Source: Hydrolagus colliei (taxonomy: Eukaryota). Taken from it: a stretch of 64,000 nucleotides of DNA. The stretch spans positions 5,704,001 through 5,768,000 of the forward strand of contig CM068750.1 in NCBI GenBank assembly GCA_035084275.1, in the 5' to 3' direction. This document shows, piece after piece, positions 1 through 63,465 of the stretch (positions within the stretch are counted from its first letter, which is position 1; each line of letters begins with the position of its first letter). The notes below the pieces were generated by a model. That model was not told the origin of the DNA and ran no database searches. It was given only the letters and a program-made list of their open reading frames with translations. Position numbers and translations under genes: made by a program.

Positions 1-2029
1 AGGCTGACAGAGGAACGGATTTGACAAATCCAAGATATTACTGAGCTGTTAGCTCAGTCAATGGGTCAAGATTGTCTGCCAATCACACTCAGCGCTTTGG
101 GACGTCCTCGAAACGTGAAAGGCACTAAACAGATGTAATTTGGGATTGTATTGTACTTACTAAGGCTGGATTTCTGAATTTGCTTTCCACTGCACTGAGA
201 GGAACAAAGCACAAGAACTTCATAGGGAGATGACCTGACAGTGGCTGACGTGCCTCCTCCTTGTTGTGATATTGATAGATGACAAGCAGAGGTTCAGGGC
301 TCCGACCATCCTACTGCCCATCTACAGCAACAATAACAACTTGCACTTATATAGCGCCCTCCACGTGGGGTAGTATCTCAGACCTTCCGAAGGCATTAGT
401 GAAGGATCGAGCATCATTAGGTGCGCTTCTTGTCCATCGTGCGTATGTGCACAGATGGTAACGTCAGTGGTGACATGATGACCCGGACTTTAGACACATT
501 TTTATGTTTGGCTTATAACCTGACCTGGGAGCGAGTGGATGCTGAACTCCGTGTTACAATAGTCTTTCCCTGCAATCATTTTAGGAGCAATGCTTAGCTT
601 GTCCTATTTTACAGCAAGTACTGAACCTACTTGTAGTTGGCAAATCCCGGTGATGTCTATCAAGACGGAGAAGCCTTCCTAGTCAGTTCAGTGATCCTGG
701 AGCAACAACCGACCTGCAGTTGCTATCAGGTCAGAAATCTGTATTTGTGGCAGGATCTGAGAGAAGATGCGGTGGGTGTGGAGGTGTGTGGAGCTGTGCA
801 ACGAACCCATGGCGATGAGGCTGCACCTGCGGATCACTCTCACCATCAGCACTTAGAAGAAGACCAGTGCGGTCGATATTAACACACAAGATACACAGTC
901 AGTTCCTTTTACCATACATTCTGTGAAGCGCCTCGAGACGTCCCGTGATTAAGCACAATATTAAATGCAAGGATTTATTATTATTATTAAAGTGGGAATT
1001 TATTTCCGTGAGTAAAAGCTTCTTGTGAACGGCGCAAGCACGACTGAATGTAAAAGAAAGCGAAAGAGACACAATTACTGAAGCACTGCATAGATGTCGA
1101 TGGTCATATCTGGGGCTTCGGATCAATACTTTTTTTAATCAAAGTTCTACTGATAAAAATCTGAAAATAAAACACTCGGCCCCGGATCTGAAAGCCTCCA
1201 AAGCTACTTCCCAGCTGCTGAAAGGCGGGTATCGAAATGTTGTTTTTGCAACAAGCAGTTTGTGACTGTGCTAAACATGGTCTGCCGTAATGTCTGCCAT
1301 AATGTGGCCGCACTCGGCCCCATAATGGCTTTGTACACCAGACATATGGCATAAATCTGCCCCATCAGCTTTGCTTCACGCTTTTTGCGCTACTTCAATA
1401 CCTGTAACTGAGAGGATTCTTGCGCATATAATAACTGTGCATATAATAGATAAGTATCCTTTATAAATCACAGAGTAAAAGTGACAGGTCATATATTTAC
1501 TTACATTTTTGTGTTCTGTTGACATGCAGTTTAAAAAAAAGCATAGCCTCCGAAGGATATGACCTATACTTTAAAGCCTGTGATGTTTTTAGAACCGCAA
1601 CACCAGTGGAAAAGGATGCGATCATCAAATGCACAGTTTATAGGTAATTATTTTTCCTGTATACTTTATAGTCTCTGGAGATACAGGCAATGTAATATTT
1701 CACACATCAAGGACATGACCTGGATTATTTACTATCCATGATGAGACTGTCCAGGTTTTGATGTCGCCGTGAATGATTGCCTATAACTACTGAATTTCAC
1801 ACCTCCCATCTTCGCTGCCTGATAAGCTTGGTTATGGTTTTTTTATATATATAAAAAAAGTCACTGCAATCAGACAGTGACAGGATATTCTCCTGTATTC
1901 TCCTGTAGTTAATGGTAGACAGATACAGTCAGATAATAAACTTACAGAGTCTATATTTTTTAAACAAAAAACTGTACGCAAAACAAACGCACCCTTTTTT
2001 CACAAAACGTTTGAAATAACTAGCCACAT

Positions 2030-26680: not shown

Positions 26681-29075
26681 AAATCATATCATTTTGTAAA
26701 CTTAGTAGGGGGTTCCCTTGCTGTTTACAACATAGCTTGCATCTGCCCATCAGCAGTAAGTGCAAAGAGCAGTTAATTTTGAAGCACTGCTTTCTTATAT
26801 ATAAAAAATATTAATGGTTGTTGTTTTTTTTGTGAGCTACATTATCTCATTACAGTCTTTGCTATAAAAGCACTTCACCCCACTTCAAACACAGATTTTA
26901 TAAAACCTTAAAATGGTTTTGCAATGTGCAATAATGACATGGTTGAGCATTTCAAATTGTGTTAAATTTCGGAATGTATTTTAAGGGTGGAATTTCGCCT
27001 TAGGTGGATGATGAATGGCTCATACTTTATTTATGTTTCATAAAGCAAAAGCTAACAGTAGGAATAGAAATAGTACATCTTTGCAAGGTGTAACCCAGTC
27101 CAACACATTTTCCTTCAAGCACATGCAGTTCCACAAAGTTTAAGATAAGATGAAACTGCACATGTAATTAATTATTGTCGTATGATCAAACAGCACTTTA
27201 TGTATAACACTTGTAAATGTTGTCTTGAAGATTAGAGTTAAAGTTGGAGATGCATGAAACAGTTACTGCTTTAAAACTCACCAGTTGTTCAGTTGAACCT
27301 TTTGGCAGAAGTTCAGTTTAATATGTTTATATGATAAGTGGCAGGAGAGTCAAGGATACTTTACACTGATGTAAACAGATATCGAGCTCGTCAGTGTATT
27401 CGGGCTGAAAAGAATGTGCTATGAAGCAGCTTTAATGGATCTTCCTGCTTTGAAACAAGAATAAGGCAAGTGCTTTTTTATTTTTGGGGTCTGAGTTTAT
27501 GAATTTACAAGTTTTCTATTCTAAGAGAAACACCTTTGGTTTGACTGGATCTAGTCACTAATTGTTTTTAAAGCCACCCAGTGTTATTCAGGGGAAAAGT
27601 TTCCATTGTTTGTTCAACTTCAGTATTTGGTTCTTAATTGGCAGCCACCACATTTTATTTATACATTGGTCCTATCTAGGTTAGCGATAATGGATTGAAG
27701 TGAATATTCAAAACTAAATATTAATTGCGGTTGATCTAAAATGTTGCTCACCATTTATGGTTAATATTTTTGCACGTCTGGTTTTTAGTTGCTGCTCCCA
27801 GACTCCCAGCTCACTCGAGACCACCCGTTTGAAATGAACAGCACTGTGTTTTGTCAGTGCTTCCCTTTTATTGATACCGTATCTAGACTTGCAATAGAGC
27901 TCTAATATCTGCATTTTCAGAGGAATTGGAACAAGGGCGGAGAAGTGAGCAATATCCATAAAAGTGTATGAAATTGCCATGAACCACTATATTAAGTCTG
28001 CAATTACTTCGAGGGGAAACATGAGTGAATTAGTAGTGGAGAGCAGCTAAATCTCTGAGGAGGAAACAGACTTTCGAGGGTAAAGGGCTGAAGCGACAAA
28101 TATTCCCAAAAGTTCCCTACAATGAAATCCAGTTCACAGTTTTCAGCAAAATGTCAGAAATTGTATACACATGTACTAAAAATGTGCATATATAATGCTT
28201 TTTTTTTTACAGAATTCAGTTAATGTATGAAAGCAATTATTCAATATTTGGCATAAAGGGCCAGACACAATTGGTACAATAAAGACTGTGGACATAAATG
28301 AGCCCTTCATGACGGGAAGGAAAAATAATTACTTTTGCAATTGTTGAGGTCGATAAAATTATCAAACCATAGAAAAACTAGCTCATGCAATAACGGCATA
28401 CACAACATGTTTTCTATGGGAAAGCTGAGCGAGAGGGCAGAAAAAAACATAAAGCTTGGGGAGAACTGTATGCTTGGCAAAGTTTTAGATAAACACTGCA
28501 GTAGAATGTATCTTATTTTAATTGTATAAACACCAATCATTTCTGTTGTATAGAGAACACATTTATTTTCTATCCAAACATGTGTACCAAAAATAGGAAG
28601 CTATGTGCAGGTTTCATTGATTGGAGGATGGAATGAGATGAGAAGAGATGATTTGCAAACTTATACCAGAATATGTTTGCATGAGATTTGGTCACAAAAT
28701 AACAATTCAGATTTTTTCAATATATACTTGCAGTAGGGGTTATATGCTTTGTTATATACTTGCAGCAGGGGTTTTCTGACTGATGTCTAGTACTGTATTC
28801 AAAAGATATTCTACAGTTTCCAAATGCACCTTGGACATCCCTCAAGTCCCAGATCTATTCATAAAAACGCATGGAAAATTTTCTGTAGTCAAACACGACT
28901 AAGTGATTTGCAAATTCCTCCATTTGGAAAAGGTAAAGTTGCAGGAATTGTAAGGTTTGTGGACCAATTTCTATAGCGCTCGAACCAGCAAATTGGAATT
29001 GCAGAACTGCGTCAGCAAATAGTTCTTGCAAATTAAACAAACCCTTATACTGCATTTTCTGTGGCAATACAAGTA

Positions 29076-29187
29076 CAGGGTGAGCAAAAAGACATCAAAA
29101 CAATTTAATGTCGAATAGTTTTTAAAGGAATTTTTTTAGATACAGTAATTAGTTTGATGAAAAAATCAAGACTTTTTGGTCACCCTG
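29076..29187. mobile_element. 112-bp MITE with Tc1/mariner-type TIRs
   Basis: CAGGGTGAGCAAAAAGAC ... GACTTTTTGGTCACCCTG (16/18 inverted match); TA on the left, CA on the right. Confidence 0.65.
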
Positions 29188-38344: not shown

Positions 38345-38483
38345 GCAATTGGACTAAAATGGCCAATATCTATTCTGAGGACAAGGTCGAGCGGAACATT
38401 GTATGAAGGGAACTGTACATCTCTCAAGAGGAGATCACAAAGGAGGGTTCATTTTCGAGAATCAGATGAGATAATTTTGCCCA
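38345..38483 (+). CDS. C14orf180: NRAC/C14orf180-like middle exon
   Basis: AIGLKWPISILRTRSSGTLYEGNCTSLKRRSQRRVHFRESDEIILP resembles human NRAC KCPPSILKR...RRVWFREP; acceptor ccagcag| (alternative start 38342), donor A|gtaagt, phase 1. Confidence 0.8.
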
Positions 38484-39303: not shown

Positions 39304-42300
39304 TCACAGCCCCTGTAGAGGGGGTGTGGGCAATATCTTAACACAAAGGATAACATTCTGTAACCCGATCAAACTAAATGCTGTAGTGTCTGTGGATGTA
39401 AAGAAAAATCTCAGGAAATATAGCTCTTTATGCTTATTCACAAGAAGGAATCGCTTCATAGCGCTAATCTTAGTTTGATTATACTACACGAAAAATTCTA
39501 AATGGTGCAGAATTACAGTCCATTAAATAAATTAAATTCTTTCAAATGAAATGGAGAGGAAAGAAGTTCCATCGTAATTACAGTCTTCAGAAACATCCTA
39601 CAGTGAGTGGCTTCACTGGTTTAGAAGTTGATTTTCATTTGAAACAGCATCCTAGTATGGTAATCCCAAACCAATTTGCTCCAAAATTGTTATAAGGTGG
39701 CGAGGAGGAATTTCACCACATTTAGATAGATTGTGAAATATGGGGTCAGAATATACAATCACTAAACAATGGTAAAAAACAACAACTCATTCATAAGAAA
39801 TCACCTACAAATGTTGTACAGAAATAGCTAAGTAAATAACTAAAGGGCGGTTCAAAGGAGGAGAGAAATCATTTGGGATGTTTCAGTCAACTGTTCATTG
39901 CAATCATTTGTGCTATGAGAATGTTAAGACTCATTTCAAGTCCCCAGCTGTGTTAGTGCCCATCTCAGGCCTCTTTTCAATCTAATTTTTCACACTCCCC
40001 TGGTGTGAGCGCAAGCCAGGGTAAGTGGAAACCTATCCAAACACTCATTTCGCAACCTTGCTTCCAAGGTATTGAATCGGCCGAATTCTAACTTCTTGTT
40101 GCACATGAAAGTAATGAGAATATAGATTTGTTTTGAATTCTAATAAAAATTCTAATGGCACAACAGACAAAGGGTGAGCATTTCTGAAGTGAAGCAAGGG
40201 TGGGAGGGGAAAGATGGGTGATGTGTAGCCTGGGAAAATGATACTCAAATGTTAGAATAAAGAAACATTTCTGTTGTGAGATAACATTCAGAGGGATATA
40301 GTATTTGGATTATTGATTTTAATTTAGTATTTACTGTTCCACGGGGGAAATTTCTACAAATTAATCTATTTCTTGATCCCAAGGGGAGCATAATTCTTAC
40401 CTCGTCATTTTATTTTCCCATTATTTCTCTCTCTCTCTCTCTCTTTCTTGAAAGGCTTTCTGATGCAGGCCCCTGATACATTAATCTATCTGCCTGGTCA
40501 ACTCAATACCATTCAGCAGTTATTTTTGTGTCTGTAACTGTGTCCGTGACTCCACAATACTTAAAAAAAAACCCTCACTATTATTATGGGAGCCAGTCCA
40601 GATGGCCCGCAGCTAACATCAGAGACAATAATCACAGCAAACTCAACAGTGTCTGCACAGTGTCATTATACATGCAAAACAAACTGCTGAGCAGCACACT
40701 TAATTTTCTCTCTGCTCCCCAGAATTGCTCTGATAGCTGCATTTTGCTGGACTACAGTTCCTTTTTTGGTTCCAGCTGAATTATATTTATGTACTGGTGC
40801 ATTTTAAACCAGCTCGATGCTTCTTACAAAGATTTTTTGGTTCATCTTCGCACTCAATTCCTCATTGCTGCAGATAGGCGAAATGTAGCACTACATCAGT
40901 TTAAAAATGATTTGGAAACACCAGCCTGTCATTCAGTAGGGCCAGCTCAAGCCAAAATTGTAATTAAACCAGTTTACAAAATGCAGTATCTTTTTCAGCA
41001 CATTGATTAATCTACATTTGTTTTGCATTTTTCTCCGGTAGCTGCTAAAAACACGGCCATTAAACATTTTATGCAGGATTTACAGTCAAATGACAACAAG
41101 GTAGTGCTTACAATTTGTCCATTTAAAATATCAATTTGGAGATTCACTCTCGAATTCAGCAAGAATTAGTGCAGTGCAATCCAATATAACACCTTTCACA
41201 CAAGAAGGGTATTTCAAATTGCCTGACAAGTCCTGAATTTGGGGTGTGAGCCAGTGGCGGTTGTGGTGGGGAGGTTGGATGGTGGTGGGGGGTTTAAAAG
41301 CACAGTCAAACAGGTATGTTTTGAGACCATTCAAGACATGCCTTGAATGGTGGGTGGGGGGAGAGAGGCCATTTAAGATCATCAAACCTATTCATCAGAG
41401 TGATAAAGAGCTCCCAAAAATGAATAATTCTCGCATTTGACCCCTAAAAGCATGTTAAAAAAAATTGTGCAAATGTAGTGATTGTGTATCTATAGGCAAA
41501 TAAGGCAGCCAATTTGAACACAGCAATGCCCCACTTACGTGACAAAGTGAGTGATCAATTTAATCTGGGGTTGGTTGGTCAGGTTAGCAGGAAGAATACT
41601 TTATTTCAATAATTCTATGGGACCATTAATGTCCACAGGCCAACAGGCCAACAGAACTTCATTTTGTCTCACCCCCAGCACAACACTGGAGAATTAGCCT
41701 GGGCTATGTAAAGGGAACATTTACAAGCCCTTCATTTATTACAGCATTTCATTTGGAGTTCTTTAGCTTATTCACCTCAGATCATTATCCCTAGAAGGTT
41801 GGTTAGACAGTGACGAGAGTTATTGGATTGCGGTACAATGGTCTTTAGTTTCTATGGGTTAATATGAAACACCCTCTGAAATGGCCCAACAAGCTACTCT
41901 CGAGAGAAGATGACTAGGATGAAAATCTCATAGATGGGTACAAGATTTTAAATGAGATTGAAAAAGTAAAACCAGATCAATACTTTAGGATGTATCAAGA
42001 CAGTAGAATAAAGGGACATGGGTTTCCAATTGTAAAGGGTAATCTCAACACAGCCAGAATTTGTCTTTACACACAGGGTAATCAACATCTACATGGTTGT
42101 CAAGAATGATGGTAGAGGCCAGGACACTGGACTCATTGATACTTTCTTATATTCTATTTTATACTTTTTTTAAAAAAAAGGGCAGGAAGATTATTTCTAA
42201 AACAAAACGAAAACACAGCTTCCTTCACTGAATGGCTGGAGAGATTTCGAACAAGCATGGACAGAGTAGAACTAGACTCTAGTGGTAATGTAAGGTAAAG

Positions 42301-47528: not shown

Positions 47529-47744
<216 letters not shown>

Positions 47745-48519
47745 TTAAAAGCACACTTTGACAACAACAACTTGCATTTCTATAGGGCAAAGGGCGGGAG
47801 GGGTAATCTGACCGAATGTGCAGCTAAAAACAAGATACACCTTGTTTTGTTTATAGAAGTAAATAATTTGAATACAGCCTGGATATTGATTGTTAATGTC
47901 AAATTCTGAAAACTCAACAGGGGCAAAAGCATAGAATGAAACTACTCAATTCCTTTATTTTAGACAATCCACTCATTTGTTTTTCACAGTCAAAACAACA
48001 AAAAACAGGAAATCTACCATTGTCACAGTTAATATATTTGGTTTATCAAAAACATTGTCTGCATAAGAAACTTTTATACAATGCTATTTTTTAAAAGAAA
48101 AACTGTCCAAGAATATAATATTTGTGAATTTTCTATCACTATACATGGTCGTCTAAACTGAGTGCTCATTGAATGAAGCAATATTTGATTTACAAACAGC
48201 ATATTTCTGACAGTGAATCCATTTACAATTATCCTTTTTTGGGAAGAGTTTCGAGAGACATTGTGCTAATGGCATTTCAATAATTTATCATTGGATTCAA
48301 TGATAATTGGATTGAACATTTGAATTCCATGGCAAAAAAACTCCGGTAAATGTGCAATGGGCAGGAAGTTATGTCAGTGACAACCTACTGACCTGGAAGT
48401 CAAGCACAGGAAATCAACCAGTTTTCAAAGGAGATGCACAAGCAGCTGTCAATAGGGCCCTATTATAATGCAGATTACAATTTCTTGGACCTCAAATGGT
48501 TCTGCTGTAGTTAGAAAAC

Positions 48520-48865
48520 ATAATAATAATATTTCTTTCATTTGATATAGTGTCTTATCATGTTTTCGAGATGTCTCAAAGTGCTTCATTAAGATATAGT
48601 ATAAAGTGAATTGACTGTCTATTTTGTGGGCAAAACGCGACAGCTAATTGTCTACAAGCAGTCGTGAATTGAATAACCAATTTTTTTGGAAGAAATTATT
48701 ACCCCCGAAAAAGCGAACCACCAATCGACTGACAACCAGGTTCCTACTTACGACTAGGTAAACAGAAGCATCTGGAGTAAGAAAACTTGACCTACATTTC
48801 GCCCTGCCGGGAATCGAACCCAGGTCTCTCGTTTATCTCCCGCAAGACAAGTGCTCCAGCCACTC
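48520..48865 (-). mobile_element. Near full-length tRNA-derived SINE in TMEM179 intron 3
   Basis: GGGAATCGAACCCAGG (B box, reverse) and the family tail. Confidence 0.88.
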
Positions 48866-49150
48866 CAAAAACTTTGATTTATATAGCGCCCTCCATGCTG
48901 GACGGCGTCTCAGAGCGCTTCACTAAGCTACAGGACTTCACAATATAGGGTGATAACCAACACAACAACAAACAAAATTATAGAGGGCCTTTCATGTCGG
49001 GAGGATGTCCCAAGGTGCTGAAACACCATGTGCAATCTAAATTATTCTGACTAACCAATTCAGTCAGCTGATGCGCTTTGAGACATTCTTCCAATGTGAA
49101 ACAGCACTTTTATATACTTCACTATATCTTTACTATATATCCTGTTGTCA

Positions 49151-49578
<428 letters not shown>

Positions 49579-49939
49579 GCACCTTTAAACTACAACTGTG
49601 TGATGAGCTTGTTTAGGTCATAGCTCATCAACGATAGGAGATATTCCCCCATCGGCCCCCACCCACCCAAAAAAAAACATGCCCATGACACTCCCCCATG
49701 CAAAACCATTCCGATGAGTAAAAATTGACGCTTCTATGTCCCATCAATCATCCCAAATACCCCCTTTCCCTCCACACTCCCCTTCCCCAACCCGGGTCTG
49801 AAACAATGACTGTCCAACACCTTGGGACATCCTCCCGACGTGTAATTTTGTCGTTGTTCTTGTTCTTCTCACTTTTATTTACTCCTGTAGCACTTTTCAT
49901 GTGTTAGGTGCTTGGATTTGCCATCGATAAGTTTTTCTA

Positions 49940-50221
<282 letters not shown>

Positions 50222-50439
50222 TCACTTCAGAGATACAGCTCAGTCTGCATAGGGCTGGAGCCAGTGAGCATTCTCCACCCACACACAGCAGAGGGAGAGA
50301 GAGACGCAATAAAGCCCTGAGGAACATTACACTGTCCGTCCATGGCTTTATTTACAACAGCAACGCCAACACTGACTGACTGTGATCACAAAACTCAGAC
50401 CTTTCCTATGGGTGGGATTTGATTTTAACCCTCCATCTC

Positions 50440-50660
50440 TTGTGCAATCGGCTGCCGCGTTTCGCCCGCAAAATAAGACAGCCAATCAATTCCCTTTGCG
50501 GCGTGTTCCGCGAAGCGCTTTGAGACGTCTGGACGACGCGAAGAGCGCTGTAATACTACCCCTGTTAATAATAATAATCCTCACCTTTGACGCGGCGCTC
50601 TTTCACGTCTCCCAGACGTCTCAAAGCGCTTCGCGGATGGCGCCGCGCACAGCGTAAATC
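50440..50660. mobile_element. Two tail-to-tail SINE 3' fragments, unusually GC/CpG-rich
   Basis: Plus copy about 50440-50555 and minus copy about 50566-50660, both alignable to the family tail. Confidence 0.85.
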
Positions 50661-50909
50661 CCCGGGCTGAGACGCGGCAGCCCATCCGTCGCGCGCGGCC
50701 GCGGACTGAAACCAACGCACGTATTATTCCCCCAACAAACAAACAAACAAACAAACAACAACAACAACAACAACCCTCGCCTTTGACACGGGCGCTGTGA
50801 CAATCCAAAATGCAGGGAATCCTTCTGATGATTTTGCCCAGCACCAATCACAACAGGAAACAACAACAAGATGGACATCAGCTTGCATTGACAAAGCAAA
50901 GCAGCGACC

Positions 50910-51160
50910 TCCCCCCCCCCCCACCCCTCCCATCTCCTCACCCCCCCACCCACCCCTCCCATCTCCTCACCCCCCCACCCACCCCTCCCATCTCCTCACC
51001 CCCCCACCCACCCCTCCCATCTCCTCACCCCCCCACCCACCCCTCCCATCTCCTCACCCCCCCACCCACCCCTCCCATCTCCTCACCCCCCCACCCACCC
51101 CTCCCATCTCCTCACCCCCCCACCCACCCCTCCCATCTCCTCACCCCCCCACCCACCCCT
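50910..51160. repeat. 29-bp minisatellite (ACCCCCCCACCCACCCCTCCCATCTCCTC), about 8.5 copies, followed by (CT)n
   Basis: Exact 29-nt periodicity visible directly. Confidence 0.97.
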
Positions 51161-51209
51161 CTCTCTCTCTCTCTCTCTCTCCTCTCCATGGCTGGGCTTG
51201 ACTACCTAC

Positions 51210-51511
51210 TCGTCGTGACCTTTGCAGAGGTAGAAGAGGAGCCTCCAGGCCTGGATGGCCGACAGGACCAGGGCCAGGCAGAGGACGAAACTGGTGAAGC
51301 CGCAGGAGGAGGTGGGACCCCACTCCCCCACCACGAAGCGTTGCCTCTCCACCGTGGCGTTCACGTCCTGCCACATGCCGCGGGTGAAGAGCGGGCATCT
51401 CCCCTGGAACTGCCGACCGTTCTCCCACAGCGGCACCACCGCCACCAAACCGGACAGGAGAGCCAGGGAATACAGCAGGCACTGAACCCACACCACACTG
51501 TTCAGCCCCAT
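51210..51511 (-). CDS. TMEM179: TMEM179 coding exon 1 (302 nt)
   Basis: ATG at 51511; MGLNSVVWVQCLLYSLALLSGLVAVVPLWENGRQFQGRCPLF...EWGP..C..LCKGHD matches the TMEM179 N-terminus; donor GA|gtaggt, phase 2. Confidence 0.95.
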
Positions 51512-54802: not shown

Positions 54803-54958
54803 TCACTGTTGAGTCTGAAGTTCTTTCTTTTTTCTGATAATTTTGGCAACATCATTCTTCAGTTTACCCAAACAAGTTTCCAGCTCTCCTCCCAACTCTT
54901 TGATCAGCTCGGTTCTTTCATTTGCAAAGAACCTCAAGGAATGAATATGACCCTCGTC
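54803..54958 (-). CDS. KIF28: KIF28-like last coding exon (156 nt incl. TGA)
   Basis: attttag|DEGHIHSLRFFANERTELIKELGGELETCLGKLKNDVAKIIRKKKELQTQQ*; 'KLKND.A.I..K' resembles the KIF28 C-terminus. Confidence 0.88.
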   Translation of the reverse strand, partial: DEGHIHSLRFFANERTELIKELGGELETCLGKLKNDVAKIIRKKKELQTQQ

Positions 54959-55942
54959 CTAAAATCAAAGCAAACAAGGAACTCTGATTAACCAACCTCA
55001 CCAAAAGGTTTTTACATTGTGTGGTATGTGTGTCTGGAAAAGCCTTCCGGAACACTGACCTATGTTCAAACCCATCAGAATGACAGAAGCAATTGAGTGC
55101 AAATGTAGTTCTGCACTAGAAAAAGATAAAATAGCATGTGTCTGAATTAAATAAAAGATCTGAATAAAATTAACAGCAAATATGCGTACAGAAATAAAAC
55201 AGTTTAAAGGCTTGATGGAAAGAACATTTCCCATTAGTTTGTGGAGCTTCAAAAGGAAACTTCAAAGCTCCAGTCTTGCTTGGTGCTTGTTAATCTTGAT
55301 GCATCGCCTTTAATTTCCCTACTCTGGAAAGTGGGGTAGCAAACCTCCACAGGTTGTGACTTCATGAGTTGCCCATGTAAGACTAAAATAATAATTTGAC
55401 TGTGGGGCTGTGAAGAATTCTAAACAATGAAGAGTCATCCATTGGCAGAATTTCCTGGAATTCTGTCCCATTTACACACACCAAATACACTATCTAGAGG
55501 AAAGCCCCATTTTCAAACACTCTCAAGATGGAACCTCGTGTTTAATTAGATTGCTGAAATAACTTTTTTTCCCTTTGTTTTTGGACCTCTTCATCATATG
55601 TATACCTTTACTATTTTCTGTTCCAATATGCAATACAGTACAGTACTTTACACTTGTTTTAATTGTATCTTAGGCTTCTATCAGGAATATTATTCCATAT
55701 ACAGGAGTATTAGTCAATAGTATTTTTAGTGCAATGAATGTTTCATATTATTATCTTTAGATTGTATTTATTTGAATAACTATTTTTGCCAAAAGCATTT
55801 TTGCCAACCTGAAATTATTCTTTTCAATGTCTTTTTTTCCATGAAGAGAAGAAAACGGGACACAGGGACTTCAAGCAGTTCAGGTTTGCAATCAAGCCTA
55901 TGGCACAAGGGCAGTAATAAGATGCAATGAATTCTCTCTTAC

Positions 55943-56103
55943 CAGTGGCCTGATCTCATTCAGATGGATCAGTCTCCCTCTCACTCCATTCATGCTGAAG
56001 TAGAACGCCTTGAGTGCTTTTGCAAACTCAGCATCCCAGTTGGGAAAGGGTGACCTCAGGTTGGATCTATCGTCAGTTAATTTTGCTGCATTCCCGCATG
56101 CAA
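55943..56103 (-). CDS. KIF28: KIF28-like penultimate exon (161 nt)
   Basis: ACGNAAKLTDDRSNLRSPFPNWDAEFAKALKAFYFSMNGVRGRLIHLNEIRPL; the 'AKALK.FY.SMN..RG.L' motif as recalled from the KIF28 tail; CTG|gtaaga; phases 1/0. Confidence 0.88.
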
Positions 56104-56501
56104 CTGAGGACACAGATTTAAGGTAATCACAAAAGGAATTAAAATGGGAGCTTGTAAACATAAAATCTTTTCTCAGAGAGCAGTTGGGACTGCAATTCTC
56201 TACCACAAACTATTGTCGGGCAGAGATCATAAATTATTCAAAAAGCAAATTACAGCAGATTGATACTCAGAAAAAAGAGGATTGTGAAAGAGTACGGTGA
56301 CCAAGCAATAGAGTGGGATTAGATTAGATTACTCAAGAAGAGAAACACTCTAGTACATTCATGATGGTCAAATAGCCCTGTTTCTGTCCTGTAATATTCT
56401 GAGATTCTGTAATGAAAAATTAAGATTTGGTTGAGTGCAAAGGAATGAGTAAAAGATCCAGCAGCGGGCAAAGCACAGCATAGCAGGCAACTGACACTAA
56501 C

Positions 56502-56664
56502 TGCTGCTATCGTGGTCTGAGGTCAGTCTTCTCAGCTCCCCTGCTTTCTCTCTCATATCAAAATTATCGCTTTTCAAGATTCGATTTGCTTCTCTCAAGT
56601 CCACAGTTTCCTGCTCCAGCATTTCGAGTTGCTTGGATAGTTTGAGTCTGTGCTCTTCATAATC
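56502..56664 (-). CDS. KIF28: KIF28-like coiled-coil exon (163 nt)
   Basis: DYEEHRLKLSKQLEMLEQETVDLREANRILKSDNFDMREKAGELRRLTSDHDSS; aatgcag| and A|gttagt; phases 0/1. Confidence 0.82.
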
Positions 56665-56825
56665 CTGCATTGGTACAGACAGCAAAATATTTCAACGCAT
56701 TGGATTGTCTGGGATTATTACCCTCGCCGGCCTTTCATTCGCAGGAAAAGAAGCAAATAATTGATGGTATGGATGCAACAGTGGGCAACACACCTACTTT
56801 GTATTAAACAATGAATTCAACATAC

Positions 56826-56932
56826 CAGTGGCACAGATGACTGTTGGTTCCTGTAGCACAAATCTAGTAGAACACTTCCATCACTTGAGAGTGGGATGTC
56901 ATCAAATATTGTATCCATTTCTTGGCAGCCTT
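56826..56932 (-). CDS. KIF28: KIF28-like exon (107 nt)
   Basis: EGCQEMDTIFDDIPLSSDGSVLLDLCYRNQQSSVPL; atgtcag| and CTG|gtatgt; phases 1/0 bridge the neighbouring exons. Confidence 0.8.
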
Positions 56933-57274
56933 CTGACATATAACATAATGATTGTTTGTCGTCTATTAGTTTTGTGCAAATACACTCTCACCCACAAATA
57001 TTTCATTTTAAAGAGGCAATAAAACTTCATGAAAAGAAACTTGATAAAAGAATGGGATAAAACTTGCAGTGTTCATTAATCCATTGCTGTAATTAATTGA
57101 GGATCACTGTAAAATGTACCCAAATATACATGAAAATCTCAGAAGTATGTTAACTGAAAATTCTTCATCAAAAGTGTTTTTGTCTCGACAAAAAGATCCA
57201 ACGACTCTTTTGATAAAGTAATTGGAGTGAGCATTCCCAGTAGCAAATCTCACTGCGACAGCCAATGCACATAC

Positions 57275-57441
57275 CTTGGAGGCCCCATAGTTGCAGCACC
57301 AGGGCGTGGGTTTTCAGATAGCTGAGGAAATCGGTGGTAACATGTTGAACAGTGAAGCGTATTGAATAATCCAGATCAGGATTTGCATTACTCCAGGCAG
57401 CGGGTGTGTAGAATACTGTAGGAAGGCCATATAGCACAAAT
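57275..57441 (-). CDS. KIF28: KIF28-like exon (167 nt)
   Basis: FVLYGLPTVFYTPAAWSNANPDLDYSIRFTVQHVTTDFLSYLKTHALVLQLWGLQ; gttgtag| and G|gtatgt; phases 2/1. Confidence 0.9.
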
Positions 57442-58600
57442 CTACAACACATAAATCATTACACGACCATTTGGGGAGATGCCAGTGAGGAACTTGATAT
57501 TCAATCAATGATGTTATGAATGAATATCAATGCTTATATGCACAGTTAAATCTGATGCTTTGTAAATTTTGTGATGGTTTGTAAGAGAGATAGACATTTG
57601 GATATTAGAGGTATTCGGAAGTATGGTAAGATGCGGGCATTCAAATGAAAATATCTGCTAAAATTCAATAAATTGATAGAACAGTCTTGATGGACTGAAT
57701 GGCCTTATCCTGTTCTATGCTGAAATAGGTTTCTACTTGCGAGTGATTTATATTTGCAGATGTAAAATATATAGATTTATATTTACTATTATTGCAGAAA
57801 GTATATCTACATCAAAATTGTTACAATGGCAGTTTCTTCCAACTATCTATTTATGCAATTGAAACATTAACCTTTCTTCACACACAGTTCAGTGTGATAA
57901 GCAGCAAATCAACATGACAGAAGAGAAAAAAGCTACAGTGATTTTCAAAGCAGCAAGACTGGAGTTTTTTTTGGAATCTGCTCCTAAACCCAGTGTGAAT
58001 GTTGAAAATAATTTCAACTGAAAGCAGAGACTCAAATAGAAGTTGGATTTACAAAGAATAACAGAGGTGAATTCCTGGATTTAAAGCACTATCATGGTCT
58101 TAAGAAGAGTGATCTTAAAGAGTTATCGTTAGTCTTTTGCTCATTCCATGATCCCTAACATCCTTAAACAATTCTTAAAATAGTTTAAAAGTAGATACAT
58201 AGATACTAGCTACAATAATAAACAAGCTAACAGTAATTAAATTATGAGCGATGTGCATTATTGTTACACCTCAACAGTTCAGCGCTTACAGATGGAAGCC
58301 ACATCGTTTGCAGTTCAGATTGAATTTGGGTTGGGCCTTTAGTGAACAGACCAGAAGAGGAACGTGCACGTGAAAATGATCAATGGGGGAACAATGGTGG
58401 ACTTCCATGAAACAAATAACATCTTCCAGTTTTCTATAGTTATCACTATGCCTTTAGAAGGCCAAGTGAAAGAGCGCATCGCGATGCCAACAGCTTGAGT
58501 CTGCTGTTGAGTCAGCCCGGCTAATTGGATTGAAACCTCAGGTGTTCTGAGCCATTTGTAATGCCCCTGGTGGTTTGAGATAAAAGCTGGGATTTCTCAC

Positions 58601-58735
58601 CCAATTTGAACTCCTCTACTGCTGTTCTCGCGGATCCACCTCACTCCCAAACACAGACTAATCTGCATTTGAAAGTCCATGCGTTTCCCCAGAAGATTAT
58701 CAGGATCAACAACGACAGATTCCTCTCCCAGTGGA
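58601..58735 (-). CDS. KIF28: KIF28-like exon (135 nt)
   Basis: PLGEESVVVDPDNLLGKRMDFQMQISLCLGVRWIRENSSRGVQIG; tgtttag| and GG|gtgaga; phases 2/2. Confidence 0.9.
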
Positions 58736-59223
58736 CTAAACAAAGAGTACACACAGCAAATTAGTTGCCGTTCCTCCTGTAATTGCAGCTTTTCTCAAGG
58801 TGTTCACGTTCACGAGACTACAAACTGTGTTCTCTCCACCCATATTGTTGTAAAAATTGTGCTCAATAGAAATATGTTGTTGTATCACAGGCATCTTATT
58901 CACAGAAAACGTAAAGAATTATAGAATTGTACACAGTCCACTACAGAATCACAAATTTACAATTTTATATATATATATGTATAAACCTACAAAAGCACTT
59001 CAAGGTGAATGATCTTAATGTTAAAGCTATAATTTAGAATTTGCCAAATTCTGGATGGACTCTCTAAAATGCTATAAAGACTATATCCACACCCTGTTGG
59101 AATTTCTCCACCGAATGGCCATAAGTACAATGTCAGCTCAACCTCTGTTACTGTGCCTTGAGTTTGGAATTTGGGTAACCATCAATTGATTGACTGCAAT
59201 ATTATTCTCACTAAATATAACCT

Positions 59224-59515
59224 TTAGCTCAGTGGTTAGAGCACTTGCCTTACAAGCGCGAGACCTGGGTTCAATTCCAGGCAGGGCAAAACCTTGAGCA
59301 AGTTTCCTTACCCCACATGCCTGATAATAATCCCTCATGAAAAAAAAATTGGTCATTTCAATCCATGACTGTTTGTGAGACACTGCTGTGCACAATTGGC
59401 TGCTATGGTTTCGCCCACAAATTTACAGTCAATTCATTTTACAGTATATTCTGTGAAGCACTTTGAGACGTCTAGAAGATGTGAAAAGTGCTATCTCAAA
59501 TGCAAGGATTATTGA
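59224..59515 (+). mobile_element. Near full-length tRNA-derived SINE (same family)
   Basis: GCTCAGTGGTTAGAGCACTTGCC...GGTTCAATTCC head; AAATGCAAGGATTATT tail. Confidence 0.9.
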
Positions 59516-61255
59516 TATCATTTATCCACATAACAATATCAAGCAATCATTTATATTGCTTCATATTTGCTGTGCGCAAATGTGCTGCCATATTTTCCTA
59601 CAAAGTACAATCACTACACTTGCAGTAAATCCTGCCTAGTACTTTAACATATCCTCACAATGTGAAAGGCCCTGTGTCAAATGCAAGGATTATTATTGCT
59701 TCATAACTAGTGGCTATGTAATTTTATAAACATAATTTCAATTTAGAATTTGGCTCAGCATCCACAAACATCTTAATTTGTCAGAAGTGAAAATTGGAAC
59801 AACAAAATATAAGGCAACATGAAACATGCAAATGCGAAAATAAAAATAGTCTATTATCATTATGACACGTATGAAGGGCTATGAACACGTCCACAGCTAC
59901 AAATTTCTACCAAGTGAATACTTAGTTTGCCCTGAATACACATTTACTATATTTATAGCACACATTCACATTATCCTCTCGTTCTCACACAGCTGCTCTT
60001 ATGTGGGTTCATAATTTAATCGTATTTTTATGTAAATAGTTGAGAACCTTATAAATCTACAGCATATGTTTTGTACAAATATAGGAATAGTGCTTTTATG
60101 GCCCTCCGACTCACCCCATCCCTCCTCTCAATAAAGGCATGTCTCCAAACGTACAATTCTTCTTTGACCGTGTTTCCTTTCACCTTCCACTGCCCTCACC
60201 CTCCTCACAGCTCCCACACTTGGCTTGGGAGACCAGCCAGCATCGTCAAGCTGTTTGCAACATCTTCCTGATGTGAAAGTTTTAACTAAGTTTAAACTGT
60301 ATTATATTACTGTAGTGGGGTTTGATCATTAGCAATGTCCTGCAGAAGGCAATGGGTGTGATGGCAGGCAGTGTTCTAAGGAAAGACACTGATTTTTTTT
60401 TCCCCTTATAATGAACTGCTGGGTTTTGAAGCGCCAAATAAAAACTATTTGTCATCCTCTCAATCCACCTGGCCTTTTAAATTTCTTAATTTGGATTCAG
60501 GAGATCTAATTTTTTTCCCAGTTGTTTATTCCTGCAGAAACACATGATTAGAGTCATATCTAAGCTTGCTCAGGCACGCTCATGAGAGAGCTCTGGCCAG
60601 TTATGTCCCAATTTCTATTTATAAGAAAGATATTTTCTTTCATCCAAAGCATATTTCTCTAATAATTCATACATCGCGCATGAGGCTGTATTTAAAACAT
60701 AGTGTGCAAATTTGGGCATCCTACTTTCAGAAGGGCATTGCTGCATTTGAGATGGATAAGAGAAGTGTGGGGTCTTGAGCTTAGTGAGAGACCTGCAGAA
60801 CTGAACTTATTGGAGTTCAATAAGAGGGGAATTGTGACAGAGATATTTTAAACAATGAGAGGTTGAAATGATATAGATGTAAGCAATCATCTGACTCAAA
60901 TGAAAATGCAGAGCCAGAGGATATGGGTTCAACCATGAACATGCCTCAAACAAGATGTTACTTTCAGATGTTATTTTAAGTCATGAGCAGTGTATATGTG
61001 AAACAGACTGGCAGAAAAGCAATTGATGCTGTTATGATTAAGTCTAAATATTTGTTTGGAGTAGCACTGAAGGTTATATGGATAGTTCTTGCTGAAATAA
61101 TAATAATGCATCCATTTGATATGGATTATCATGTCTTCGAGATGTGCTTATATTTCCACTTCAATATTCCTACTATTTTTTATAAAAAAGGTTAAATTAT
61201 TCACTTAACTTGAGTTAGCGCTGTTACAAATATGAATTGATGATTGGAAGCTTAC

Positions 61256-61384
61256 TCTCCACTGGGAGTGCAGGGCAGCAGCTTGATCTGAATCACTGCT
61301 TCTTCCTTTCCTCGATAGTTATTTATGTCCACCTGATCTTCAAAGGTCATACAGTAGGCCAAAGGTTCCAGCCACACGTGAGCA
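61256..61384 (-). CDS. KIF28: KIF28-like exon (129 nt)
   Basis: AHVWLEPLAYCMTFEDQVDINNYRGKEEAVIQIKLLPCTPSG; attgcag| and GA|gtaagc; phases 2/2; not in the ORF track. Confidence 0.9.
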
Positions 61385-61653
61385 CTGCAATACATTCACA
61401 TAAGGAACAGAAACACACACTGGGAACAAGAATAATGCAAGCAAAAATGGCTATTAACTATTTCACTGCTGGAAGCGGTTTGTCAGTTTTAACCATGCAA
61501 TGCTGAAGATCTAAACAGTCTATAAATATTGGGATTTCTACAATTGATGGGGTTAAAGAAGAAATAAACAAAAATGTTAACTAGTAAACATAACAGTAAA
61601 CAGGTTGAAGCAGATGGTAAAAAGGGACTCAATTCGGATTCTCACTGATGTAC

Positions 61654-61799
61654 CTTCCAAGGTGCAATGACTCGACAGGGTCCCAGAACACGTCTTCTTC
61701 CAGATCAGTCTGGGTTTCTCCATTTTCCACAAAGTGTTGGTAAACTTCTTCAATCAAAGGCATTCGATCGGTGAACTTGTCCAGTAACCAGACTTCAAC
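61654..61799 (-). CDS. KIF28: KIF28-like exon (146 nt)
   Basis: VEVWLLDKFTDRMPLIEEVYQHF...EDVFWDPVESLHLG, the kinesin-3 (KIF1B-like) 'W..KF..R...D.FWDP...LG' segment; phases 0/2. Confidence 0.9.
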
Positions 61800-62405
61800 C
61801 TTGAAATAAACCAACTGTTGGTTCCATCACATAAACACACAGAAACACGTACACCACACAAACACACATGCATACATACGCTCACTGAACACAATCTGGT
61901 CTTTTCATATTTCTAACATGTTCTTTGTTTTGTCTGACACTATTCAAATCACACATTCTAGTTGAAGGAAGAGATGTTATCAGTGTGATATTGGGGAGTC
62001 TAACATACCCCTAAGCAATAACACTAGTAAATTGGGAAATCCCATACTAAACATGCATTGAAAGGTTCACTAGTGTTAACTTGTGATATGTGCCAGATCC
62101 CATTGAGACGTTAACCCTACATCCATGATTTAGTTGGACTGCAGTAATGTGAATGGACTTTGTTGCTTCTTGAAAAGACAAGTAAGTTTCTTCCATTATC
62201 CTGGCTCCCAAATAAAATTGATCATTGACTACATGTTTCATTGTGGGACCTAGCTGTGGGCAAACGACCAATTAGTCATTAGATTTACAGTAAATTTTGT
62301 GTAGTCCTTTGAGGTGTCCTCCCAATGTGAAAGCCATTATATAAAATGTAAAGATCATCATCATTATTATTATTGCACGTATTCATTCATACTGAGCTGC
62401 CTTAC

Positions 62406-62513
62406 CTGTTTAGTTAGTTTGTTTGTTACCTTCACAATAATTTCTTTTTCCAACTCCTCTCCCTTAGCATCAGTCAGTGCCAAGTTTTTTACCTCTGGTT
62501 CAAAGATAACACC
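62406..62513 (-). CDS. KIF28: KIF28-like exon (108 nt)
   Basis: GVIFEPEVKNLALTDAKGEELEKEIIVKVTNKLTKQ; ttcaaag| and CAG|gtaagg; phases 0/0. Confidence 0.88.
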
Positions 62514-63346
62514 CTTTGAAAGGATAGAAACAGGGTGGTAATTGTTAATGCATTTAATTGCTACCCCTGTGCCTTTCATCTTTTCTCTCTTCATCAGTAT
62601 GTCACACCAAACCCCATATAAAATGTCAGATAAGTGAGCTTCTTCCAGACATTTGCTAATGCCATTCTGTAACTGGCTGCTAGGAGACGGGACATAATTT
62701 TTCCTGGGAAAAATTGTTCTGTTGAGCTTTTCTCCTCCAAAAGACAATGTTTTTGATAATAGCTTGCCACATCCCCTATGATCACCTAACTAATATAGGG
62801 AGTTAACTGGAAATGTCCCCATGTATGGAATGGAAACGCACACTCTCCCTGGAGACATACCCAGCTTACCTAAATTCTGGAGAGTACGAGGCACTCGGTT
62901 GGCAAGAGCCAAGCCTTGGAGATCCCGGAGGGGTTACTGCTGGAGCTTTACCAGCTAAAATCGAATAGCCTGCCACTGAAAACTGTACGGACAAGCTTTC
63001 AGTGTTTGCCATATATCTTTGTCCAACTAGGATCACTTGAGCCAGCTTGGCCTGGTTAACAGGAGACCAGTAGGAGCAATCCTTGCCCTCAGTGATGTAT
63101 CATTGTAAATTGTCTGAGTTTAGTGTTCCGAATCAGCCCCAGATTCATCTCTGGGGCAGGTTTTGTTCCTAAGCTGAGTTCCTTGATGCTCCCCGTGATA
63201 TTAATAAGGAAAGTGCACTTAATCTACCCACACAGATTTGATTAATAAGCTCTCACTCGTACACCAGGTTTTAGCATAATCATGGCATTAACAAATTAGA
63301 GTCAAAGGCCCTTTCTGAAATGATAACAAGAAATGAACAAATGTAC

Positions 63347-63465
63347 CTTGTTAAGTTCCTCACTTATTTGGTTTGCCCAAGCCACTGACGGCATGATTGA
63401 GATAAAATCCTGGACAATTCTTGTCAAATTAGGATCCAGATTTTCTTTCTGCTTTTCACCTGCCA
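63347..63465 (-). CDS. KIF28: KIF28-like kinesin-3, internal exon (gene continues past window end)
   Basis: Reads AGEKQKENLDPNLTRIVQDFISIMPSVAWANQISEELNK; donor AAG|gtacat; in-frame alternative acceptor at 63459. Confidence 0.85.

Follow-up and report, generated by a model that had tools for sequence, protein, structure and literature searches.

The stretch of DNA analyzed here, from Hydrolagus colliei (the window, 64,000 nucleotides; C17:5,704,001-5,768,000 of a 1.0-Gb genome), contains the 3' part of a kinesin-3 gene that we call KIF28B. It is an intact second KIF28 gene. The canonical gene, which we call KIF28A, is on C3, and the two pair up within two mirrored blocks of genes. We conclude, with a probability of about 0.85, that the pair goes back to a whole-genome duplication in vertebrates, probably the first one.

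The first-pass annotation had spliced ten exons of the window in frame and read them as a KIF28/KLP-6-type tail, and both points held. The ten minus-strand exons give 1,391 nt, that is, 462 codons and a stop codon with no internal stop; all acceptors are AG, and the nine internal donors are GT. The stop codon is 3,292 bases away from the ATG of TMEM179 (51511), close to the earlier estimate. The tail of a shark orthologue (P0003) matched 10 of the 10 exons in order, with 61 to 96% identity (789 bits), and found nothing at an E value of ≤1e-3 in 20 shuffled windows. The exons are the 3' end of a full kinesin-3 gene whose best match in the PDB is KLP-6. The complete gene has 24 exons and a 3,126-nt frame encoding 1,041 aa, and all 23 introns are GT-AG. 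Exons 1 to 14, encoding the motor, neck, CC1, and FHA, lie past the right window edge and reach C17:5784208.

The domain names of the exons were transferred from an alignment with KLP-6 and from its published description (PMC9314371). Within the window, exon 15 (63347..63465) encodes the CC2 helix and the start of the MBS, which continues through exon 16 (62406..62513) and exon 17 (61654..61799); exon 17 also has a Pfam KIF1B match below the cut-off (E = 0.0016). Exon 18 (61256..61384) follows an intron that the C3 copy does not have, and exon 19 (58601..58735) is 96% identical to shark P0003. Exon 20 (57275..57441) encodes a predicted beta-sandwich equivalent to a MATH domain, exon 21 (56826..56932) matches the P0003 tail, and exon 22 (56502..56664) encodes a long helix that is predicted to form a coiled coil. 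Exon 23 (55943..56103) encodes a C-terminal helical domain common to canonical KIF28 and Haliotis, and exon 24 (54803..54958) carries the stop codon.

We considered whether KIF28B might be recently dead or dying, with its frame open by inertia. Stops in the neighbouring ELYS-like and NRAC-like genes would fit such a state, as would the truncated or garbled database models of several sharks and rays (P0002, P0015, and P0016). However, the 24 exons are all in frame with canonical splice sites, and protein identity reaches 92% with Callorhinchus milii P0001, 80% with Heptranchias, and 64% with sturgeon. The catalytic motifs (P-loop, switch I, and switch II) are intact in KIF28B and throughout the clade of its orthologues. 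A dying gene is therefore highly improbable. The one sequencing run looked DNA-like, showed no KIF28B splice joints among the joints listed, and may be the assembly's own source.

A second KIF28 near CNST, SCCPDH, and AHCTF1, which the first-pass annotation had envisaged, was found when the genome was queried with one tail exon. KIF28A (C3:74508714-74539611, plus strand) is intact and lies between AHCTF1 and SCCPDH/CNST; its 23 exons encode 1,053 aa without a stop. The two proteins share 510 of 1,038 aligned residues (49%), with 60% identity in the motor and 42% in the tail. All 22 KIF28A introns occur at the same place and in the same phase in KIF28B, which has one additional intron (61385-61653) where KIF28A has a single 275-nt exon (146 + 129). 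A genome search with a motor exon gave 14 matches, namely the two KIF28 loci, which scored 150 and 101 bits, and 12 other kinesin loci, which scored ≤47; no third KIF28 copy was seen in this search, which scores the best candidates only. The databases give both kinesins the same name, KIF28/KIF28P.

To place the two copies, we built a 24-row tree under LG+G4 from both Hydrolagus proteins, six database proteins of the KIF28B type (B), ten of the KIF28A type (A), and six outgroups. The outgroups were molluscs, an annelid, echinoderms, and a choanoflagellate, from a representative search; 30 proteins were named by look-up, 28 of which belong to the 150 of that search. As the first-pass annotation had suspected, the C3 copy and not KIF28B grouped with tetrapod KIF28, and KIF28B fell in a sister clade. 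Support was 100/100 for vertebrate A plus B, 100/100 for B, and 100/99 for A, and each clade follows the species phylogeny. KIF28B is sister to canonical vertebrate KIF28, followed by Haliotis and Owenia. The same result came from a quick mixture-model tree of 34 rows and from a FastTree of 143 rows, the latter made without six representatives longer than 1,400 aa. The approximately unbiased (AU) test rejected a duplication confined to cartilaginous fishes (p = 3e-37), and it rejected a split older than molluscs and annelids, with either A or B placed with Haliotis and Owenia (p = 1e-39 and 3e-40). The B clade thus split off before the shark/bony-fish split and after the invertebrate outgroups. 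Canonical orthology of KIF28B was rejected: the C3 copy has both the A-clade placement and the AHCTF1/SCCPDH position, and the window gene has neither. A Ciona KIF28-like protein was tried as a near outgroup and rejected, as its branch is long and belongs to a different lineage. The named rows included no KIF28 of lamprey, hagfish, or amphioxus.

The tail search returned 325 proteins, and the distribution counts come from the 120 that were listed. In a tree of these 120, 15 grouped with KIF28B and 105 with KIF28A. The 15 B proteins represent 14 species: 12 cartilaginous fishes (chimaeras, sharks, and rays), paddlefish, and sterlet. The A clade holds teleosts, sturgeons, coelacanth, lungfish, frogs, a caecilian, reptiles, birds, mammals, and seven B-bearing cartilaginous species. 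Both copies were present in seven species among the matches listed, plus Acipenser sinensis and Huso huso. The loss in mammals proposed in the first-pass annotation stands in that no listed mammalian protein is of the B type, but it was too narrow, since none of the listed teleost, coelacanth, lungfish, amphibian, reptile, or bird proteins is either. KIF28B was likely lost at least twice, in the lobe-finned line and in the line to teleosts. A search of short proteins gave five matches, all of them from sturgeon or paddlefish or unnamed fragments nearest paddlefish. Beyond these clades, proteins P0123 to P0270 fall into three or more ancient KIF28-like lineages, in each of which animal proteins stand beside those of choanoflagellates or other protists. 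As every one of them bears the label KIF28/KIF28P, the name spans several pre-animal subfamilies.

The surroundings of the two genes mirror each other. We covered about 0.46 Mb of C17 and 0.40 Mb of C3, with a repeat-masked comparison of the two, and added six family searches. Eight gene pairs stand in the same order along C3 from 73.74 to 74.58 Mb and along C17 in reverse, from 6.006 to 5.742 Mb, seven of the eight in mirrored orientation. Ascending C3, they are a PLD family gene (-, 73.74 Mb), a CEP170 family gene (-, 73.85), ZBTB (+, 74.29), ADSS (-, 74.32-74.37), AHCTF1/ELYS (+, 74.45), KIF28A (+), TMEM179-like (+, 74.56), and consortin (-, 74.577), with SCCPDH (-) between KIF28A and TMEM179-like. 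Descending C17, we found PLD (+, 6.005), CEP170 (+, 5.98), ZBTB (+, 5.944), ADSS (+, 5.87), a formin taken as INF2 (+, 5.85; Drf_GBD E = 1e-13), ELYS-like (-, 5.82-5.83), KIF28B (-), TMEM179 (-), and NRAC-like (+). The labels within pairs (PLD4/5, CEP170/170B, ADSS1/2, ZBTB18/42, INF2, TMEM179, and NRAC) and the human 1q44 and 14q32 gene orders are our assumptions, and SCCPDH was placed on C3 by three motifs that we take to be diagnostic. The SCCPDH profile PF03435 gave 0 matches among 7 candidates in the genome, and no SCCPDH motifs were found in 164 kb of C17. The ELYS, TMEM179, and ZBTB pairs surfaced from searches not aimed at them. An ancestral block PLD-CEP170-ZBTB-ADSS-ELYS-KIF28-TMEM179-consortin would account for both orders; the C3 copy would have retained all of its genes, and the C17 copy would have retained KIF28B in cartilaginous fishes and in sturgeons and paddlefish. 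The first-pass annotation had matched NRAC-TMEM179-KIF28 with CNST-SCCPDH-KIF28; the mirrored order stands, but the partner of TMEM179 is the TMEM179-like gene on C3 and not SCCPDH. The ZBTB genes (C17:5,944,318 and C3:74,290,458) are oriented alike and not mirrored, a local inversion in one block. A near-identical 2-kb element at C17:5,664,700-5,666,900 and C3:74,443,500-74,446,100, with what we take to be a hAT-like C-terminal motif, is a recent transposon copy outside the old paralogy.

This order also bears on whether KIF28B might be a moved ordinary orthologue, a recent copy within the lineage, or the product of an assembly join to TMEM179. A 151-base stretch of Ns does lie between TMEM179 and the kinesin, and the sole sequencing run, probably the assembly's own data, was examined only to the right of it. 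However, the misjoin at this stretch that the first-pass annotation had allowed for is unlikely, because the mirrored C3 order continues on both sides. The canonical copy is intact in its usual block, and monophyly of the two cartilaginous-fish copies was rejected. Taken together, explanations of this kind are barely credible. If a large segment had been duplicated in a stem jawed vertebrate, independently of genome doubling, the local picture over the stretch and the six families compared would be identical. Such an event is nevertheless very unlikely, since the tree puts the split in the right interval and, in the available part of PMC7269912, genome duplication already accounts for the chromosome-scale paralogy between chicken chromosomes 3 and 5.

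Which duplication was involved is a separate matter. KIF28A and KIF28B are most likely a pair from the first round (1R). The competing view, that they are an alpha/beta pair from the second, jawed-vertebrate duplication (2R), is unlikely, although it has points in its favour. Both clades contain only jawed vertebrates in our data. In addition, C17 is small (22.8 Mb versus 111 Mb for C3), KIF28B evolved faster (stem branches of 0.38 for B and 0.12 for A in the 24-row tree), and the genes around it are in decay, all of which would fit a beta copy. Against it, retention on C17 is high, with the eight pairs in about 270 kb, and the usual beta-copy candidates are AKT2 at 19q13 and CDC42BPG at 11q13. 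We take the two blocks to lie on chicken chromosomes 3 and 5. The Simakov 2020 supplement (PMC7269912), in an incomplete text that has lost its Greek letters, lists these chromosomes (CLGA) as a 1-2 pair, that is, as products of the first duplication, and the available text of the paper dates the 1-2 duplication to before the divergence of lampreys. The accessible part of the Peterson preprint gives these blocks no assignment.

The other genes of the two blocks differ in their state of preservation. The gene at 47529..51511 (-), which we take to be TMEM179, has four exons and 232 aa and no Pfam hit. Its C3 counterpart (C3:74560074-74564858, plus strand; loci L022-L023), between SCCPDH and CNST, is intact, with the same four exons and 240 aa, and 81 of 229 aligned residues are identical; it may be TMEM179B or a third member of the family. 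A genome search found no further TMEM179 copy (2 matches among 6 candidates). On the plus strand, the NRAC/C14orf180-like exon at 38345..38482 is homologous to the penultimate consortin exon. The NRAC-consortin likeness noted in the first-pass annotation proved modest for this exon (7 of 5,000 shuffles reached its score) and not significant for a candidate last exon at 40723..41007 (+; 424 of 5,000), which has an in-frame stop. The first exon matches PF15555 below the cut-off (E = 0.033), and the genome-wide PF15555 search gave two weak matches elsewhere and missed it. A PF15281 search of the genome recovered consortin on C3 only, and not NRAC. NRAC-like seems, from these sequence comparisons, to have been a paralogue of the consortin C terminus that has since decayed.

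The ELYS-like gene (C17:5,807,000-5,833,000, minus strand; loci L008-L011) lies directly upstream of KIF28B. It diverges from AHCTF1 on C3, with ten collinear exon matches, one of them above the Pfam cut-off, and has an in-frame TGA near C17:5,831,731. A feature-atlas search with an ELYS-like exon returned generic WD40 clusters only. In a gene model of Acipenser sinensis, an ELYS-type N terminus is fused to KIF28B, and four of its segments match the C17 ELYS-like exons in order. Therefore, the ELYS-type neighbour of KIF28B is conserved there. The sturgeon models that fuse ELYS-like parts to KIF28B are P0122 and, with an N-terminal extension, P0013. The orthology of the sturgeon ELYS-type part rests on position, because two of the four segments match AHCTF1 on C3 equally well or better. 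We found no account of an ELYS paralogue in the literature searched.

Among solved structures, C. elegans KLP-6 is the best match to KIF28B orthologue P0003 by both sequence and fold. The best PDB sequence match of P0003 (residues 4 to 824) is full-length KLP-6 7wrg, at E = 2e-169 and 569 bits, versus 294 for the next chain, and it takes in the MBS and MATH-type domains; the A-type protein P0025 reaches 608 bits against KLP-6. An AlphaFold model of P0003 from a 62-row alignment has a predicted local distance difference test (pLDDT) score of 80.5, and a Foldseek search with it again found 7wrg best (E = 1e-76 over 838 columns, versus 1e-34 for the next). Identity to KLP-6 is 38%, and KIF28B adds the long helix and the C-terminal helical domain beyond the solved part of KLP-6. 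KLP-6 itself stands outside our trees, which contain several old KIF28-like lineages of invertebrates and choanoflagellates; the available text of a review calls KIF28P the KLP-6 orthologue (PMC12646758). The motor is found by PF00225 in the orthologues at E = 1e-94 to 1e-96, FHA by PF00498 above the cut-off in P0001, P0003, and P0011, and Pfam gave no CAP-Gly or PH domain in KIF28B orthologues. KIF13A/B and KIF1A/B/C have the motor, neck, FHA, and MBS-type stalk in common with KIF28B but match it in the motor and neck only, at about half the score. Canonical KIF28/KIF28P, in the AHCTF1-KIF28-SCCPDH-CNST block, has the same domain order and forms the sister clade. KIF28B differs from it in its chromosome block, its extra intron, a stem branch three times longer, and a narrower distribution. 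Loop 12 of KIF28B, the site of the lysine-rich K-loop in kinesin-3 motors, has three basic residues and no poly-lysine run; it is short, as in KIF28A and Haliotis, with one more lysine than canonical KIF28.

KLP-6 is held inactive by contacts between its domains, and nine interface residues were mutated according to the available text of Wang 2022 (PMC9314371). Of six autoinhibition residues that we could map, five are kept in KIF28B: N406, W417, E453, D454, and R666 (KLP-6 N410, W421, E457, D458, and R662). The E453 position in the FHA D-loop separates the copies in part. Glutamate occupies it in 12 of the 13 B rows in the alignment and in all 17 A rows from bony vertebrates, whereas V, A, or M replaces it in all 12 cartilaginous-fish KIF28A proteins. 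Because sturgeon A keeps the glutamate, this split is not a clean division of labour.

Several points weigh against the picture of an intact 1R duplicate built like KLP-6. The choice between 1R and 2R, made without lamprey, hagfish, or amphioxus sequence, rests on one paper and on map positions that we assume. Most of the families compared were chosen because they form known pairs between human 1q44 and 14q32, and the order statistic (5e-5 by permutation) is therefore descriptive and not blind. ELYS-like and NRAC-like on C17 both carry in-frame stops, and the block is decaying around KIF28B. The absence of B proteins elsewhere rests on the 120 of 325 matches listed, from 8,000 candidates scored; neither clade contains gar, bowfin, bichir, or salamander, and the short-protein search, which failed to recover the known fragment P0005, says little about absence. 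In the protein, KLP-6 R606 is not kept. The P0003 model has a predicted template modelling (pTM) score of 0.46 and a root-mean-square deviation of 15 Å from 7wrg, so its domains agree but the compact folded state is not reproduced.

By analogy with C. elegans KLP-6, KIF28B would be a plus-end kinesin-3 that is folded inactive through CC1, FHA, and MBS contacts, and cargo would release this autoinhibition (PMC9314371 and PMC10945585). The available text of PMC10945585 states that KLP-6 needs more than the release of autoinhibition to become processive; the long C-terminal helices predicted for KIF28B could supply dimerization. KLP-6 moves polycystins in sensory cilia, according to the accessible part of PMC12646758. 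Judging from this likeness, the chances are about even that KIF28B carries membrane cargo in ciliated cells. Because the B stem branch is three times longer than that of A, we suggest that KIF28B took on a changed role.

A more specific proposal is that KIF28B is a ciliary motor specialized for ampullary electroreceptor cells, a vertebrate KLP-6 counterpart that would haul polycystin-type sensors in sensory cilia. This is quite unlikely. Among the matches listed, the coelacanth, lungfish, and caecilian, which belong to electroreceptive groups, gave the A copy only. In favour of the proposal, KIF28B was found, among the same matches, only in cartilaginous fishes and in sturgeons and paddlefish, and not in teleosts, frogs, or amniotes; ciliated ampullary electroreceptors are present in the former groups, according to the available text of PMC10982350, and the latter have lost them. 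However, the part available of a paddlefish list of lateral-line-enriched genes has three kinesin rows, none of them named KIF28 (PMC5429088 supplement).

Two other stretches of the window drew attention. Positions 637-879 (+) hold an 81-codon open frame with coding-like codon use and no Pfam hit; in the feature atlas it resembles kinase fragments (0.95), with few features in common. At positions 28830-29120 (+), coding-like sequence is broken up by stops and frameshifts; it may be the remains of a transposon or a piece of a pseudogene.

Both kinesin genes are already predicted in public annotation under one name, and ohnologs retained in cartilaginous fishes are a familiar class with no new mechanism. 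For example, nanos1A/1B, as far as the accessible text of PMC5932020 goes, show the same patchy retention in cartilaginous and early-branching bony fishes, in a paralogous block. We found no account of the KIF28 pair in the literature searched, including the available parts of PMC12646758 and PMC13440232; subscription papers and the ohnolog supplement tables of the shark, skate, and hagfish genomes may hold one. The 1q44/14q32 paralogon gains pairs that had gone unrecognized: ELYS/AHCTF1 has a second copy, CNST has a TMEM179-like gene as its neighbour, and NRAC seems to be a paralogue of the consortin tail. The single database name for two kinesins will mislead studies of orthology and loss. 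KIF28 is the least studied vertebrate kinesin-3 and a pseudogene in humans, and the available text of a review leaves open why mammals dispense with a KLP-6-type ciliary motor (PMC12646758). As a natural pair, KIF28A and KIF28B have a common catalytic core but are split at autoinhibition sites, and species such as catshark and sterlet are accessible for work on them. Early vertebrates had two KIF28-type motors, one of which was likely lost repeatedly.

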